Part shown: positions 18,051-45,995 of the stretch, piece by piece
How positions within the stretch are numbered: the stretch's first letter is position 1
How the letters are laid out: each line of letters opens with the position of its first letter
Origin: Scenedesmus sp. PABB004
Taxonomy: Eukaryota
Reading direction: 5' to 3'
Assembly: GCA_014905635.1 (NCBI GenBank)
Contig: CM026547.1
Location: 3,348,001 to 3,412,000, forward strand
DNA length: 64,000 nucleotides
Notes under the pieces: model-generated
Seen by the model: the letters and a program-made list of their open reading frames with translations, nothing else
Database searches by the model: none
Told to the model about the DNA's origin: nothing
Translations under genes and position numbers: made by a program

Positions 18051-18989
18051 GCGGCGCAGGTTACAGTCGACTCGCACGGCAACGCACGAGCGCGAGCAGC
18101 AGCAGTCAGTCGTGCAGATGCGGATGATGGCCAGTGCGACCCGTGGGGGCCTTGGGAGGCAGGAGAAGGGGCGGCCTGGCAAAACCAGGAAGGTGGTGCG
18201 GTGAAGGATGGATGGATGGCGGCGAAGCAGAAGCAGAAGCAGACCAAAGCAGTCTCGCAGGCGGCGGAGAGGCGGTGAGGATCCCGGTCCGACCACAGCA
18301 GCCGTGGGGCAACGGTCGCCCCCTCTTGCGACGTGGGTCGCCCGCGCCATCAGGTGTTGGGAAGGCCGCGGCAGGCGGCAAGCGCCGCGCGCCGGGCGAG
18401 CAAGCGGGCGGCGCGCCGCGCACCGGGCGGCGCGCCCAAAAGGTGCCTGAGACAAGGTGTGGCGGTGGGGCTGATGTGATGGTGATGATGGTGACGATGG
18501 TGATGAGCGGCGCCGTGCGGCCGCCGTGAATGCAAGGTGAGGGTCAATGGTTGCTGCGAGCCGCAACGGCGTTGTTTCGTTCCGCCGCCGGGGCTTGCGA
18601 CGCACCCGCCACAAGCGGCGGCGGCGCGGTGTTCCACGCTTGAGGTTTCCAGACACGGCAGTGCTTCGGCTGGGGCGCGCCCCGCCCCGCCCCGAGATGG
18701 TACTACTGTGCGTCGCGCGACGCGCGCACGCATGGCCGCGGGCGCGCACGATCTGGGCAGTGCACGCCAATCGGCTCCAAAGCAGTCCCCCCTCCCCTCC
18801 CCCCGGCGTGCACCGATGCACCGATTGGTTGAGTTGGTTGAGGTAGTTCAAACAGCTAAGCCAAAGCCCGCCCGCAAACGCGCGTGCGCCAGTGCCAGCG
18901 CACGGGTTTCGCGCGCGCATTGAAAGACCCCTCAACCACTCGCGGAGATTTGCCCACACGTTGCCCCCCGTGCCCGCCGCCCACGCGGC

Positions 18990-37344: not shown

Positions 37345-39047
37345 TCACGCGGCGGCGGGCTCGGCGGCGGGCTCGGCCGGCGTGGGGTCGGCGGGCGCGT
37401 CGCTGGTGTGGTCGCTGTAGACATAGAAGAAGCGCGGCGTGGTCATGGCGATGCCGTTGAAGTCGCACGCGCCCGCGACGGTGTACGCGCCGGCGTTGGG
37501 GAAGGCGAGCCAGTCGCCGTTGCGCAGCAGCGGGAGCGGGACGTCCTTGTAGACGCAGTCGGCGCTGTCGCAGGTCGGGCCCCACAGCGTGCTCGTGAAC
37601 ACCGGCGGCGCGCCAACGAGGGCTGGCAGCTCCGGCGAGCGCAGCACCATGTACTCGGGGTTCTGCCCATCGTACCTGCGCGCCACGCGCGCGGCGGCGC
37701 GGCGGCGGCGGCGGCGTCAGCGCGCGCTGCGCGTGCAGTGCCCGCGCGGCGCGGCGCCAGCGGCGCCAGCGGGGCGCCGCGGGGCCAGCGCAGCGGGCGG
37801 CTGCGGCTCACAGGATGCAGTTGAAGCTGCCGTAGAGGCCGTCGGTGATCCAGTAGTCCTTCTTGATGCCCCCCGCGCCGTCGACGCGGTCGCGGGTGCC
37901 GTAGACCGGGGTCAGCAGTGTTCCAGCTGTCTCCGCAAAGTAGCGCCCCGGCTCGGCGATGACCTGCACCCCGCTCTCGGGAGGGAAGTGGGCGGCCAGC
38001 GCGCCGTTGATGGTCGTGGCGATGTCGCCAAACATGACGTTGCCGCAGCTGTCAAAGTGGCCTGTGAAGCCGCCGCCGATGTCCAGCAGGCCCATGGCAA
38101 AGCCCATCTCCTTGCCCAGGTCGAAGATCTGGGCGCGGGGCCGCGGCGGGGAGGGGGCGGGGCGAGGGGCGAGGGGGTCGGCACGGCCGGGGCGTGGGCG
38201 CGCGCCGTGCCCGCGGGGGCGGCGGCCGCGCCGCGCGCCTGCGCAGGCGCCCCTGCAAGCGCGCGCGCGCGCGCCGCACCTCGCGGGCCTTCTCGATCGC
38301 CGCGCTGTACGCGGCCAGGTTCTTGCACGCGCTGCCGACGTGGAAGCTCACGCCCACGACCTCCAGGCCCAGGCGCTGCGCGGTCGCGAGCAGGCGCGGC
38401 GCCTCCTCGGGGTTGGCGCCGTACTTGAGCCCCAGCGGCACGCGCGCCTCGGGGTCGTCCGCGCGGATGCGCAGCACGCACCTGGCGCGGCGCGGCGCGG
38501 GCGGGCGGGCGCGGGTGGGCCGCCCGCGGCGGCGGCGCGGCGCGCGGGGCCAGCAGGCCAGGCCAGGGCGGTGGGGCGGGGGCGCGCCCAGGCAGTGAGG
38601 GCACTCACTTGAAGGCGCGGTTGAAGTTGGCGACCTTGGCGAGCTCGCTCTCGGTGTCAAACGTGGTGAGCCCCACGCCGTGCTCGCGCGCGTAGCGGAT
38701 GTCGCACGGCCGCTTGCACGGGTGTGCAAAGATGATGCGGCTCGGCGACACGCCCAGCTCCAGCACCTGGCGCACCTCGCCCAGGCTCGCGCAGTCAAAG
38801 CCCGCGCCCAGGGCGGCGAGCAGGCGCACCATGCCCGCGTTGGGGTTGCACTGCGCGCGGCGGCGGCGCGCGGGTGGGCGCGGGCCGGCCGGGAGGCTGC
38901 GGCCGTGCCGCGGCGCATGGGGCGCAGCGCGCGGCGCACCTTGATGGCGTAGAAGGGCAGCACGCGCGGCATGGCGGCGCGCCACGCCTGCGCGCGCACA
39001 GAGAGGGGGGGGGGGCAGGTCAGCGCCCGGCGCGCGGCACGCTAGGG

Positions 39048-39080
<33 letters not shown>

Positions 39081-39477
39081 AGCTGCTGCTGCTGAGACTG
39101 CAGCAGCTGCTGCTGGCGCTGCGCGCGTGCGCGCCTTGTAGAGGCGCACGACGTTGGCGAGGTCCATGACGTAAAACGTGTCGTCGAGCTGGTGCGCGCT
39201 GATGAGCTTGGAGGCCTCGGCCTTGAGGCCCTCCGGCCCGCCGTCGACGATGCGCTGGACCTGCAGGTCCATCAGCACCGCCGCCGCGCCGGGCTTGCCC
39301 GTGGCGGACAGCTGCCAGCTGCCGCGCGTCTTGGCGAGCGCGGCGGCGTCGGGCGCGCGGTCAAACTCGCCCGAGAAGCGCTCCAGGGCCTTGTCGCCGC
39401 GCTTGTGGCCCTGCGGCGCGGCGGGGCGCGCGGAGAGTGTGAGGCGGCGCGGCTGCCGCCGGCTGCCATGCATGCGC

Positions 39478-39512
<35 letters not shown>

Positions 39513-39695
39513 CGCCGCGGCGCCGCGCGGGCGCACATGGCCGGGCTTGAGGTGCTCCAGCGAGCCCGCGCGCGGGCTCAAGGCGTCCAGGCAGTCGCTG
39601 GCATGGCTGCTGAGCTTGGGCGAGAGCAGGCAGGCGTCGGGGCACCCCCCGTCCAGGCTCGGGCTGGGGCGCAGCAGCGACGCCGACGAGCTCAT
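37345..39695 (-). CDS. ODC: Ornithine decarboxylase (fold-III PLP enzyme)
   Basis: FYVMDLANV, PRVLPFYAIKCNP, GFDCAS, FAHPCK, LGLKYGA, GVSFHVGS, LLDIGGGF, AEPGRYF, DGLYGSFNC, WGPTCDSAD and GAYT..ACDFNG. Confidence 0.96.
38482..38608 (-). repeat. ODC intron homologous to expansin intron 35425-35607
   Basis: Reverse complement starts gtgagtgccctcactgcctgggcgc and ends cgcgccgcgccag; it aligns with the expansin intron. Confidence 0.8.
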
Positions 39696-40270
39696 GCCTG
39701 CCGAGCGGCGGCGGCGCCGGCGGGCGACCCGGGTGAGTCGGGCGGCACGCCAGGCGTCCGCCGGGCCGCGCGGCCTGGCCCGGGGCGCGCCGGCTGTGTC
39801 CCGCCCGCGGCCAGCTGGCGTGGGGCATGCCGCAGCGCCGCGGCCCGCCCGCTGCCGTGCCCGCCTGGCCCCGCCGGGCGCGCCCCGAGGGCCTGCCGCC
39901 CGCCAGAGCACGCGGGGACGGCGCGCGGTGCCGCCGGCCGCCGGCAACTGCAGGCGGGGGCGTGCGCGCCCCGCCGGCGCCGCGCCCCCGCTGCCCGCGC
40001 CCGCAGCGCCGCCGCGGGCGGCTGACGCGCAGGGTCGGCCAGCTGTCGAGGGGGGGCGCGCCTGGAACGCGCGCGCGGGCAGCACAGAAGCTGCCCCGAT
40101 TGCGGGCGCAGCCCTGCCCCGCCTCGCCCGCGCGCCGCCGACGCGCCCGGAAGCGTGAACCAGGGGGGCCCTCACCTCCTCCCGGTGGGCGGGACCGGCC
40201 GCGCGAAGCCCGTACACGGCCTGGGGAGCGGGGGCGGGTCAACCAGCTCCGCGGCCCACTCTAGCACCAC

Positions 40271-40333
40271 CTAGCGCCCGAAAGGGGGCTTGGGGCCTTT
40301 GAACACGACGGCGTGGGTGGTCGTTGCGCGCAT
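40271..40333 (-). promoter_or_regulatory. Candidate upstream ORF (MRATTTHAVVFKGPKPPFGR*) in the ODC 5' leader
   Basis: ATG at 40333, TAG at 40273-40271. It is followed by the donor GAG|GTGAG at 40175 and an acceptor CAG at 39698, 2 nt before the ODC ATG. Confidence 0.55.
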
Positions 40334-40730
40334 TTGTCTTGGGGTGACTGGCGGCGCCTCGGGCGGGGCTGCCCTTTCGCCGGGCGAGCCTCGGGAATTC
40401 CTCCGGGCGCAGCACGGTCTCACACTCCAGCGCGCAGCTGCTCTCGGCTCAGGGCCGGCACACGCTCCCGCGGGACGGCGCGCCGCGCAGACCCGGGCCG
40501 GCGGCGGGCGCCCGGGCCGGCGGCGGGCGCCCGACCAGCGGCGCACGGCACGTGCCGCGCGCGCCGCCGCGCACCACCGGTGCGCGACCGGCAGCTCCCT
40601 GCCGCCCGCCAGTCGCCTCCTTACCAGTTCAGCGGATCAAATCTGGGCCGAATGCGGCACGCGCAGACTCGGCGGTGACCGCTACGCCAAAACCCAGCGC
40701 TGGTGCCCGCGGCTCCGACGCCGGCCTCGC

Positions 40731-42489
40731 TCAGCAGCCGCCGTCGCCGCCGCCGCCGCCGCCCGAGCTGGCCGCCAGCAGGCCCACCAGGCGCGGCCAC
40801 TGCTCGTGCGTCATCCACGCCACCTGCTGCTCCGCCGCGGCGTGCGCGGCGGCCTCCCAGCCCACGCCCAGGCGGCAGAGCTGCCCCGGCTCGCCGTCCA
40901 GCAGCAGGCGCTGCAGCACGCGGCCCCGGGCCTCCTGCGCGACCGCGTCGGCGAGCTCGCCGTGCAGCAGCGACAGCAGCGGCTGCAGGCAGCCGCGGCT
41001 GGCAGCAGCTGCGGCGGCGCCAGGGCTGGCCGCGAGCATGGCGCCATCCACGGGCTGCTCGCTGAACGCGGTCAGCTCTGCCTGCAGCCGCGACAGTGCC
41101 GCCCCCAGCGCGGCGGCCGCGTGCTCGCCGCCGGCATGCAGATCCTGCAGGCCCACGCCGAGCACGCGCCGCAGCGCGGCGTCGTGGACCTCCAGCGCCT
41201 CGCCCTCGCTCTCCTCCTCGCTGGCCTCCTCCTCGCTGACCTTCTCGCTGGCCTCCTCGCTAGCCTCGCGCCCGCGGCCCTCCTCGTCCTCCCTGCCCGA
41301 ACGCGGGCTGGCTGGCTCCAGGCTCGTCGGCGAGGCTGACCGGGCGCCGCCGGCGCCCCGCAGGTCGTGCTCCGCGGCGCCCAGCAGCCCCAGCGCGGCG
41401 GCCGGCAAGGCCGTGTGGTACAGGGCGTTGCTGGTCCAGCGCGCGGGCGAGCCGAGCTGAGCCGGGCGCGGCGCGCCCGGCGCCAGCAGCCCGTGCACCG
41501 GGGCGGCGGCCTGCGGTGCGTGGACACGCAGCGCCGGCGTGAGCTGGTGCGAGGCACCTCCCCTCCCTGAGCCCCCGTGGTGCGTCCCCCGGCTCACCTC
41601 GCCCCTGAAGCGCCGCGACAGGCTGCTGAGCTTCATGGCCAGGGACAGCAGCAGCGCGGTGTCGTCGCTCGCGTCCAGCATCGACTGCAGCTGCCCCGGC
41701 GGCGGCGCCGGCTGCAGCTCTGCTCCGCCGCGCTGCAGGAGTGCGGCGGCGCTGGCCGACGGCGGCGCCGCCCCTGCGTCGTCCGGCAGCTGTGCGCTGG
41801 GCAGGCCGCTGCCCGCTGGCGACTGCCGCGCTGGCATCACCCCGCCCGCTGGCGAGGCCGTGCCTGCTGTGCAGCTGCTGCTGTCACGGCCGCTGGCAGC
41901 AGCCGGCGAGGCAGTCGCGCTGGCGCCTCCCCCCGTCCCGCAGCTGCTGACGGCTTCGCCAGCACCTGACTGCACTTCCGGCGCCCCCGCTGCCGACGCG
42001 GCCTCCTGCAACGCCGCCTGCGAGACCACCGCCTCGAGCTCGGCCGCGGCCGGCGTGCTGCCTGCCGCGCCTGCCTCCTGCAGCCGCTCTGAGATCCGGC
42101 GCAGCCAGTCACGAGCGCTTGAGCTGGCCTGACGCTCGCCTCCGTCCTCGCTGGGCGCCGCCACCACGCCGCCGCCGCCGTCGGCCGTGTCCGCGCCTGG
42201 CAGCGCCACGCTTGCCGCCCGGCTCGGCCTAGCGGACGCCGCCTGGCTCCAGGCCGCGCTGGCCTCGGTGCTGCCAATGGTCTGGAGCGTGCTGCGCAGC
42301 GTCTGCAGCTTGGCCAGGGCACGCTCGACCTGGGACGGCCCCGCCGCGCCGTCGTCAGCGGTGGGCGCTGGCGCTGCGCTGGCATCGCCTGCGGCGCCCA
42401 GCTGCGCGCTGCCCTCGCCGCCAGCCTGGAACAGGCTGTTCAGCTGGAGCAGCACGCCCTGCTCGCTGCCCAGCTCTGGCTGCAGCTCG

Positions 42490-42525
<36 letters not shown>

Positions 42526-45500
42526 CCGTCGGTCGCCGCCGGCGGCGCCGCCTCGCCCCGGCAGGCAGCGGCGCCGTCAGGCGCCGGCACGTCGGACTGG
42601 CTGGCGGTACGGGACATGCCCGACGCCGAGCGCGCAACCTGCCGGCCGGGCGACGCAGCCGCGCACGGGCCGGTCGTGCACGGGACAGCAGCAGCGGGCG
42701 GGCCCGTCGCTGCGTCCTCGCCCAGCTGGCCCTCGCCGGCCTGCGACAGCTGCTGCAGCGAGGCGAGCAGCTTGAGGCTCTCTGCCCTGCTCGCCTCGGG
42801 GCTGCCGGGGACTGCCGGCGGCTGCGGCGGGCCCAGCTGGCGCTGCCCGCCCGCCCCGCGCTGCTCCACGCCGCCGCTGCCGCCCACGTCGTCGCCAGCG
42901 GACGGCTCGCGGCTCGCGCCGCCGGTCTGGTGGCTCAGAGACTCGAGCAGCCCCTGCACGCGCGCGCCCACGCTGCGCAGCAGCTCCAAGCTGCTGCCGC
43001 CCTCGCGGCCGTTGCGCGAGCCCTGCCTGCTCGCGCCCCTGCTCAGCTCCCGCGCTCGCAGGCGGCCGCTGCTGCAGCGGCTGCTGCTGCGGCTGCGCGG
43101 GTCGGCGAGCACCGGGCTGGGCACCCACGCCACCTCGGGCGTCGCCGCCTCGACAACCGCGCCAGCCACGGTGGGCACCTGCCAGCGCTGCCGCGCACGG
43201 CGCGCGTGCCCGTCGTCCCCGGCGGGGCTGCCAGCGCTGCTGCAGGAAGCCTCCCGCAGCGGGTCCGCCTGCTGCGGAGCCGCGAGCGCTGCGCGGTCAG
43301 CGGGGCCGCCCGCTGCATCTGCAGGCTCGCTGCGGAGCGCGCCCAGGGGCTCGTCCCAAGGGGCGGCCGCAACGGCGGCCGCTGCCGCTGCTTCCGTCCC
43401 GCCTGCTGCGTCTGCTGCGCCCGCCGCGCCGGCGGCAAGGCCGGGCTGCTCGGCGTGCGGCAGCGCTGAGAAGCTGGCCTCCGCAGCAGGGCTGTGACCG
43501 CCGCCAGGCGCGTGCCACTGCTCCTGCGGCGCCCAGCCGCAGCTGCCTGCGACCGGCCCGCGACCGCCGCCGGGCGCGTCCGCGCCGCCCGGCGGCGCCG
43601 CGCTGCCAGTGGCTGCAGCGAACGCGGCCGCTGCGGCCGCGGCGGCCGCCGCCGCGGCGCCCTCCTGGCCACGCAGGGGCGAGCCGTGCGGGCTGCTGAT
43701 TGTGATGCCCAGCTCCACGCGGCCGTGCACGTGGTGCGAGACCTCGAGGCGCGCGGGGCCGAGCTGCCCCTGGTCCAGCACGTGCAGCGCGTCGCCCGCC
43801 GCCGCCGACAGCGGCGAGCCCGGCGCCGCAAAGCCAAAGTGCTGCTGGACGCCCGAGCACGCGCCTGCGAGCGGCGAGTGCACGGTGTAGGGCTGGTCCG
43901 GCTGCGCGGCGCTGCACGTCTGCGACGCCGCGTCCGCGTTGGGCTTGTCGGCGAGCGCCAGCCGCCGCGGGGGGCTCTGGTCCTGCCCGCCGCACTCGTG
44001 CGGCGCGTCGCCGGGCGCCGCCGCCGCCGCCGGTGCGGGCGGCTCAGGCTCGGGCCGCCGCGGCAGCGAGGGCGGCGCAAACACCTGGATACCAAAGTCC
44101 AGCGCCTCCCCCGCGGCGTGGCGGGGCCGCGTGAAGCGCGGCGCCGTGCCAGAGCTGCGGCCGGGCGGGCGCGCACGCGTGAGCCTGCGTGCCACGGCGG
44201 CCCCGTCGAGCGGGCTGGGGCAGGGCAGCGCGCGCAGCGCCCCACCTGGACGAGGCGCGCGCGCTCGCGGGCCGGCCGCCGCCGCCGCCGCCGCTCGTGG
44301 AGCCGCGCGCGCCGCCAGCGCTGCCCGCGGCGCTCGCGCGGGCGCGCCGCCCCGGCGCGCCCGCCACGGGCGTGACGGGCTCCGCCGCCGCCGCGGCGGG
44401 GCCGAGCTCGGGCGGCGGCGGGTCGGGCAGCGCGTGGAGCGCCTCCAGCGCGGCGGCCGCGGCCGCCCGCACTGCAGGGATCTTGTCGTAACGCACCTCC
44501 TCCAGCGCCTGGGGGGAGGGGGATGCAGCCGAGAACTGAGGCGGCTGTGCGCGCCTCGCTGCCGGCCCAGCCGGCGCCGTGCGCGGGCGCGCGCGGCGGC
44601 CGCGGCGCTGCTGCTGTGGCGGCGGCCCACCTTGAGGGCCTGGGGCTTGCGCGCGACCAGCGCGTCGAGCCCCGGCATGGCCAGCGCCGCCTCGCCGCCG
44701 GGCGTGCCCAGCACCGCACCCGCCAGCACGGCCAGGGTGTGCAGGGCGTCCCGGCGCACCTGCCAGCACTCCTTGGCGGCCGCGCCCCTGACGCACAGCG
44801 CAAGCAGCCGCCTGGCGTCCCCCCCGTCCGTGGACGGCCCCAGCACCTCCACGCAGGTGCACGCGGGCAGCAGCACGCCCGGCACGCGCGGCCCGGGCGC
44901 GCCGCCGCCCGCCAGCAGCTGCAGCATGAGCGCCAGGCAGCGCCGCACCGCGCCCACGACCGCCTCGGACGCCGCGTACGCGCGCAGCACCTCCAGCGCG
45001 CCCAGCAGCACCGCGCTGCCCGCGCCCACGCGCGCGGCCTCCGGGTCGCGCAGCGTGCTCGTGATGATCGGCAGCAGCAGCGCGTCGCACGCCGCCGCCG
45101 CCGCGCCGCCGCCGCGCAGCGCCGGCGGCGCGCCGGCGTCGCCGCCGGGCGGCTCGTGCAGCAGCTTGGCGAGCGTCGACGACACGAGCGCCGCGAGCGC
45201 GGCGACGCACTCGCCGTGCTGACGGTTCCGCGACAGCACGCCGCCCGCGCACTGCTGCCCCGCCAGCAGCGGCAGCAGCGCTGGCAGCTGCGCCCGCGGC
45301 GCGCACTTGAGGACGGTCCACTCGGCCAGCTGCAGGCGCAGCTTCACCGCGCGGCGCCCGCTGGCCTCCAGGCCGGCGCAGAGCTCGACCAGCGCCGCGC
45401 GAACCAGCGCCGGCTCCCGCTCCAGGCCCGCGAGCAGCATGCGCACGGCGCCCACGGCCTGGGCGTCCAGGTCCCGGCTCTCCAGGCCCGCCAGCTCATA

Positions 45501-45602
45501 CTTTAGGCGCTGCCGCAGCGCAAACGGCGTCAACGCGTGCTGCTCGCCGCTGCTGCGCGCCGCCGCCGCCGCCGCCGCCGGCCAGGGCGCGGCCGGCTGC
45601 AT
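40731..45602 (-). CDS. TORTIFOLIA1/SPIRAL2-like HEAT-repeat protein with long disordered C-terminal region
   Basis: N-terminal helical repeats, including ECWQVRRDALHTLAVLA and ALEEVRYDKIPAVRAAA (similar to the TOR1-family RFDKVKPVR). Two introns near 44155-44245 and 44510-44630. Confidence 0.65.
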
Positions 45603-45995
45603 GGCGACGACTCAGGAGGCTCGAGGGCCACGGCGTCACGGCATGGCCCACCCCCGCGCGTGCGCGGTGTGTCGTGGGCTGCAGAGCGGTGCAACAACCG
45701 ACTGTGTCGTCCAGAGCTGGCGCGCGCTGGCGGTGCGGGACGACGCAGACGAGAGCGACGGGAGTGGCGTCAGCGGGCCGGGGGCGCCAGCCTGGCTGAG
45801 GCGAGCGCGCGCCGCCGTTTGCGCGCGTAACGCCGCCGCGTTTTGCGGCGGCATGGAGGCAGCCGTTGAGCCATCCCCCAGATCGCCCACCGACCAGGGC
45901 CTGACACGCGCCGCCGCACGGGCGCGGCAAGCCTTACACGGCGCCGGCAGCGCGCGCAGCACACGGCGTGCCCCAACGCCCCGCGCGCGCGGCGC

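Follow-up and report, generated by a model that had tools for sequence, protein, structure and literature searches.

A short proline-containing reading frame upstream of an ornithine decarboxylase gene in Scenedesmus: most likely a conventional uORF in a plausibly spliced leader

The rate of polyamine synthesis is limited by ornithine decarboxylase (ODC). In animals and fungi, ODC homologues are controlled via upstream peptide-coding frames, a kind of control not reported for the ODC of green algae, and a conserved upstream open reading frame (uORF) with two adjacent prolines would extend this theme to the green lineage. A candidate was found in a 64,000-nt stretch of Scenedesmus sp. PABB004 (contig CM026547.1, positions 3,348,001 to 3,412,000; hereafter the window), in which G+C content is 74-81% throughout. 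A preliminary description of this DNA had read the PKPPF near the end of a 20-codon frame as the algal counterpart of a PPW motif, and hence as a candidate polyamine sensor; the upstream conserved coding region (uCC) of AZIN1, with its PPW, was reportedly described by Ivanov et al. in 2008 and 2018. The locus thus raises the question of whether this frame belongs to the ODC leader and what it would do there. By the tests run, the feature is most likely an ordinary, conventional uORF.

The gene downstream of the frame is, judged by its domains and its relatives, a chlorophycean ODC, that is, a eukaryotic ornithine decarboxylase of the group IV PLP decarboxylases. Its coding parts are the following (slashes in motifs mark splice junctions throughout).

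39135..39695, minus strand: ODC coding exon 1, 187 codons, with the conserved N-terminal extension MSSSASLL (GC3, codon score, alignments)
37345..38987, minus strand: span of ODC exons 2-6 with the stop (boundaries read off the sequence, Pfam, exon 5 identity)
38987-38940, minus strand: ODC exon 2
38850-38609, minus strand: ODC exon 3
38481-38280, minus strand: ODC exon 4
38128-37812, minus strand: ODC exon 5
37675-37345, minus strand: ODC exon 6 with the stop

In a Pfam scan, exons 3-6 matched PF02784 (E 1e-24, 3e-15 and 4e-14) and PF00278 (E 1e-12), the Orn_Arg_deC_N and Orn_DAP_Arg_deC domains. Exon 5 shares 92% identity with a EukProt chlorophyte ODC and 79% with the Chromochloris enzyme, and ornithine decarboxylase is the name carried by most of the source-named protein matches. 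The ATG at 39695 (minus strand) is the true and conserved ODC start, as indicated by the onset of codon periodicity, the codon score of the exon and the alignment of its N-terminus. From this ATG on, GC3 is 0.97 with a strong codon periodicity that is absent upstream, and coding exon 1 scores 248 bits (P = 0.000). The sequence MSSSASLL, which begins at Met 39695, can be aligned with the motif M[ST][ST]xx[VI]L[ST] at the N-terminus of chlorophycean ODCs having the same extension, with MSSSVSLL of Tetradesmus obliquus, and with MSSSASLLRPSPSLDG of the relative P0122, in which the first 16 residues are identical.

The profile-free protein search returned 56 proteins at E <= 0.001, among them the close exon-1 relatives P0122 and P0173. 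With the full exon 1 as query, a protein search gave no match, as it was swamped by low-complexity words; residues 118-187 were used instead and retrieved one protein, a fused Tetradesmus model. Five ODCs of Chlorophyceae in the database (P0002, P0004, P0010, P0026 and P0001) begin at MPRV within exon 2 or have intron-like N-termini, and many database ODCs of this class are probably truncated or intron-retaining models without the conserved N-terminal extension. The five introns of the ODC coding region are about 90-150 nt each and very G+C-rich. The first of them (39134-38988, minus strand) is apparently of the GC-AG type (AAG/GCGCGC...GCGCAG/GCG), since the invariant K-A-W junction permits no GT donor, and it contains a long repeat of the CAG/CTG type. 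The modest gain at this level is a corrected gene model, in which the start of ODC is placed, a leader intron is likely and the first coding intron is of the GC-AG type.

Upstream of ODC lies the end of another gene.

40731..45611, minus strand: terminal open frame of the upstream neighbour, a PX/Nexin_C homologue, with its stop at 40733-40731

The fused model P0121 (Tetradesmus obliquus OEZ85_008607) joins a PX/Nexin_C protein to ODC exon 1, and its halves match 40731-45611 and 39135-39695, respectively. Both halves thus match adjoining genes of the window, which points to a conserved gene order and makes the public model probably a merger of two genes: ODC and its upstream neighbour adjoin here, yet they share one gene model in T. 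obliquus.

Between these two genes, the frame in question was present exactly where the preliminary description had placed it.

40271..40333, minus strand: AUG uORF, MRATTTHAVVFKGPKPPFGR followed by a stop, with Pro-Pro at residues 16-17 of 20 (read directly)

It consists of 20 sense codons, starting with the ATG at 40333-40331, and a TAG at 40273-40271; its peptide ends in GPKPPFGR, and its AUG lies about 640 bases ahead of the ODC start in genomic DNA. The start context is ACAAatgC. The C at -3 is as previously noted, but it cannot be called weak here, as had been proposed, because in three of six relatives the main ODC AUG is itself preceded by a pyrimidine at -3. Three of the 20 codons are very rare (GCA, AAA and CCT), and CCT accounts for only 1 of the 344 proline codons of the training set. 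The frame had been reported open to at least 40546 and is open further, to 40636, giving a stop-to-stop length of 121 codons; the 121-residue frame ending in the uORF (the part before the TAG) had no Pfam match. A non-AUG extension of the uORF, considered possible in the preliminary description, was rejected: upstream of the AUG there is no coding signal and the codon score drops steadily.

Whether ODC translation meets this frame depends on the leader, for which a non-coding first exon and a 5'UTR intron ending just before the ODC ATG are plausible on indirect evidence from the following elements.

40176..40450, minus strand: candidate non-coding ODC exon 1, its 5' limit guessed from the G+C profile (island of about 70% G+C, single ATG)
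40171..40177, minus strand: donor motif AG/GTGAG (over-represented in the window)
39698..40175, minus strand: putative 478-nt 5'UTR intron, ending ...ccgccgccgctcggcag (85-90% G+C, no codon periodicity)
39361..39828, minus strand: 155-codon frame from ATG 39828, inside the putative intron, overlapping the ODC start out of frame

A spacer of 95 nt (40270 to 40176) separates the uORF stop from the putative donor GAG/GTGAGG, whose GT lies at 40175-40174, and the candidate exon would end at 40176. An AG stands at 39699-39698, next comes GC and then the ODC ATG at 39695 (...ctcggcag/gcATG). A TAG at 40263-40261 would be in frame with this ATG if 40176 were spliced to 39697. The spacer and donor, the acceptor two bases before the ATG and the in-frame TAG had all been described correctly. 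Additionally, the segment 40450-40180 has about 70% G+C between stretches of 85-90%, and 40175-39700, at 85-90%, resembles the five ODC introns. The window holds 10 copies of the heptamer AGGTGAG, with 3.6 expected; none of 100 shuffles reached this count, and one copy is the putative donor. The whole 1035-nt intergenic stretch contains only two ATGs: that of the uORF, the sole one in candidate exon 1, and that at 39828. The latter would begin a 155-codon frame running across the ODC start out of frame and, lying in the putative intron, would be spliced out. This depletion of ATGs is not significant in the intergenic stretch (2 vs 3.4 expected, P = 0.24). In the open frame of the close relative P0173, MSSSASLL is preceded by ...FFSCVLQVEV, which could, when back-translated, represent a pyrimidine tract plus CAG. 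The length of the putative intron counts against the model, at 3-5 times that of the coding-region introns. In favour of the model, the fold of candidate exon 1 is less stable than that of its shuffles (z = +2.0). Rfam gave no matches at E <= 1 across 39500-40900. The structural part of the preliminary model was upheld (an ODC starting at 39695, with a plausible non-coding exon 1 and 5'UTR intron), while the polyamine-sensor function assigned to it was not.

Among metagenomic relatives, one locus, L017, shows a matching leader layout without sequence similarity.

L017 2196-2348: uORF with KRPPP
L017 2381-2867: putative 487-nt leader intron

The order there is a 50-codon AUG uORF, 32 nt, G/GTGAGT, about 487 nt, CACAG/, 42 nt and the ODC ATG; the splice sites are predictions, from a single locus whose ODC shares 48% identity in the portion of exon 1 that could be matched. 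Its putative intron, close in length to the 478 nt of the window, encloses two overlapping ATGs, and its uORF contains many A/T-ending codons and has the PPP 31 codons before the stop, that is, away from the C-terminus. DNA alignment of the two exon-1 candidates revealed no convincing similarity. In another metagenomic locus, L001, the 575 nt upstream of ODC have no clear donor, and an exon 1, if any, may lie beyond the contig.

We favour, with slightly less than even confidence, a leader composed of a non-coding exon 1 (about 40450-40176) and a 478-nt 5'UTR intron, carrying a conventional 20-codon uORF that would constitutively lower ODC translation. From the arrangement of sequence elements we infer the transcription start, the splicing, the translation of the uORF and its effect. 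Removal of the intron (40175-39698) would place the ODC start codon two bases into exon 2 and the stop of the uORF, which begins at the sole exon-1 AUG, 97 nt before the ODC AUG in the spliced mRNA. Part of the scanning ribosomes would translate the uORF, and a fraction of these would resume scanning and reinitiate at ODC, while the remaining ribosomes would scan past the uORF AUG. The net outcome, if the uORF is translated, would be a constitutive reduction of ODC translation. Counting against a plain, non-selected uORF is a codon-like G+C periodicity that extends from its AUG to the donor.

An unlikely though substantial alternative is that the uORF lies outside the ODC mRNA altogether, as a chance frame that belongs either to intergenic DNA or to the 3'UTR of the PX/nexin-like gene upstream, with ODC transcription starting downstream of 40271. 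Only 397 nt separate the stop of the upstream gene (40731) from the uORF AUG, and lengths of several hundred nt are frequent among chlorophycean 3'UTRs; when the intergenic stretch is shuffled, 88% of the shuffles contain a closed AUG ORF of at least 10 codons, and every splice and exon call here is a prediction. The end of the upstream gene also has no TGTAA, the chlorophyte poly(A) signal. As a marker of 3' ends, TGTAA was discarded as too rare: it occurs only 7 times on both strands of the window, and 3' ends in this DNA must frequently rely on variants. Against this alternative, a GTAA at 40624 has a G+C shift from 69% to 85% across it, and the resemblance to the TGTAA site at 18064 suggests that the upstream gene ends near 40610; both sites lie at a drop-then-rise in G+C. 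Furthermore, a transcription start within 40175-39829 would leave ATG 39828 to block ODC translation. A start would then be left to the 132 nt before the ODC ATG, where G+C is 88-90% (up to the AG), unlike six relatives, in which the ODC ATG is directly preceded by 50-80 nt of C/A-rich sequence with 54-66% G+C. The enriched donor motif falls exactly where the lower-G+C island ends, and the matching layout of L017 likewise speaks for a spliced leader. With a much lower probability, the uORF could be the truncated front of a once longer frame (a run of 52 sense codons between ATG 40333 and the donor, interrupted by the TAG) or a decayed coding exon.

40172..40270, minus strand: uORF frame beyond its TAG, 32 codons, then a TGA overlapping the donor (codon-like G+C periodicity)

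Across 40333-40175, G+C by codon position is 0.68/0.62/0.89, best in the uORF frame (P = 0.0024, mononucleotide shuffles), and the cumulative codon score falls as far as the AUG and then climbs by about 27 bits to 40225, straight through the TAG; this signal past the TAG hints weakly that the frame was once longer, and the analogous uORF of L017 has 50 codons. However, the maximal-segment codon score of 28 bits (40321-40223) is matched by 13-19% of dinucleotide shuffles, and its density of about 0.85 bit per codon compares with 1.54 in real coding sequence. The run holds six very rare A/T-ending codons, the uORF of L017 lacks such a codon bias, and the Pfam scan of the 121-residue frame up to the TAG was empty.

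The polyamine sensor itself is also held to be improbable. It would require that translation of K-P-P-F needs eIF5A, that high spermidine impairs this step and that the ribosome, stalled near the end of the uORF, blocks or queues scanning ribosomes, and consequently ODC synthesis would fall. According to PMC2811004, two adjacent prolines near the C-terminus are the one feature common to almost all uCCs of ODC homologues. In addition, the uORF AUG is the only one of candidate exon 1, the codon-like signal begins at it, and the putative exon 1 of L017 likewise has an AUG uORF, containing KRPPP. The Pro-Pro, however, is within chance in DNA of 79% G+C such as this (P 0.06-0.19): among the window's ATG ORFs of 10-60 codons, 14 of 170 (8%) have PP in the last 8 residues, and dinucleotide shuffling produced at least one closed AUG ORF of 10 or more codons with this feature in 19% of trials when applied to the 1035-nt intergenic stretch, and in 5.6% when applied to the 275-nt exon-1 candidate. 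The proline pair would also be accidental in its position near the end if the frame was formerly longer. Conservation of the peptide, the check put forward in the preliminary description, was not above chance upstream of ODC in nine relatives, L017 among them: Smith-Waterman comparison of the uORF with the three-frame translation of 1 kb gave P = 0.58, while the 32 codons that follow the TAG gave 0.45 and a third frame 0.92, in loci of which none is more than 54% identical in ODC exon 1, which makes this a weak test of conservation. The nearest relatives (P0122, P0173, P0001 and Tetradesmus) are represented by their proteins. The metagenome scan had yielded 23 ODC loci, with the ODC start placeable in 11; no shared upstream peptide was seen in these 11, and tblastx of the leader against all 23 gave only low-complexity Ala/Pro/Arg matches. 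BLASTP of the uORF against that of L017 produced no alignment at E <= 100, and the PPP of the latter is distant from its stop. Most simply, the Pro-Pro near the uORF end is a by-product of sequence with 72-80% G+C and not a tuned polyamine/eIF5A sensor; with proline pairs at chance frequency, no peptide conservation detected and KPPFGR before the stop, the counterpart of PPW initially proposed is unsupported. A broader version, to which we likewise assign little probability, is that chlorophycean ODCs carry an exon-1 AUG uORF with K/R-P-P that responds to polyamines via eIF5A-dependent stalling while the remaining peptide is free to drift, and such drift outside the Pro-Pro would be the reason why the uORFs of the window and L017 do not align. 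If true, control of ODC homologues by Pro-Pro uORFs would have arisen independently a fifth time, and for the first time among green organisms.

PMC2811004 describes uCCs of ODC homologues from animals, Pezizomycotina, Basidiomycota and Zygomycota, with independent origins in four groups; these frames run to 22-100 codons, start mostly at non-AUG codons and have a conserved C-terminus with two adjacent prolines. Initiation is described there at a conserved near-cognate AUU, UUG or ACG in good context, with a minority of AUG starts, such as the versions of vertebrate ODC and AZI2 (PMC2811004). In animals the C-terminal motif is given as PPWxxPS before the stop (excerpts of PMC10855120), and the stall is stated to enhance initiation at the upstream AUU (excerpts of PMC9082881). 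The uORF of the window resembles these uCCs in being short, lying upstream of an ODC homologue and having two adjacent prolines near its C-terminus. It differs in starting with AUG, with C at -3, and not with a near-cognate codon in good context, in its 20 codons, below the range of 22-100, and in its green algal host (excerpts of PMC2811004); its end, KPPFGR, is neither PPWxxPS nor PS before the stop (excerpts of PMC10855120), and no peptide conservation was detected across the nine loci (at most 54% identity in ODC exon 1).

Conventional uORFs are reported besides uCCs in many leaders of ODC homologues, and the mammalian ODC uORF in particular, as described in the excerpts of PMC2811004, shares with ours a single short AUG uORF, a long G+C-rich leader and the absence of a conserved peptide. 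A uORF of the mammalian type is expected to repress the main ORF moderately (excerpts of PMC2811004), and the same would be expected here; the lineages differ, and the uORF of the window lies in a putative separate 5' exon followed by the 478-nt leader intron. The tiny and small uORF pair of plant and green-algal AdoMetDC is a further parallel within the polyamine pathway and the Viridiplantae, with a proline near the C-terminus, but it belongs to a different gene, and its small uORF is conserved in sequence, runs to 48-55 codons and has Pro as the penultimate residue (excerpts of PMC2811004), unlike our uORF, which is single, ends in GR and has no overlapping partner. Full-text literature searches turned up no paper describing a uORF before the ODC of a green alga.

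A repeat was also observed in the spacer between the upstream gene and candidate exon 1.

40471..40533, no strand assigned: 19-nt tandem repeat in the G+C-rich spacer from the upstream gene to the exon-1 candidate

It comprises 2.2 perfect or 3.1 imperfect copies and may lie within the promoter region.
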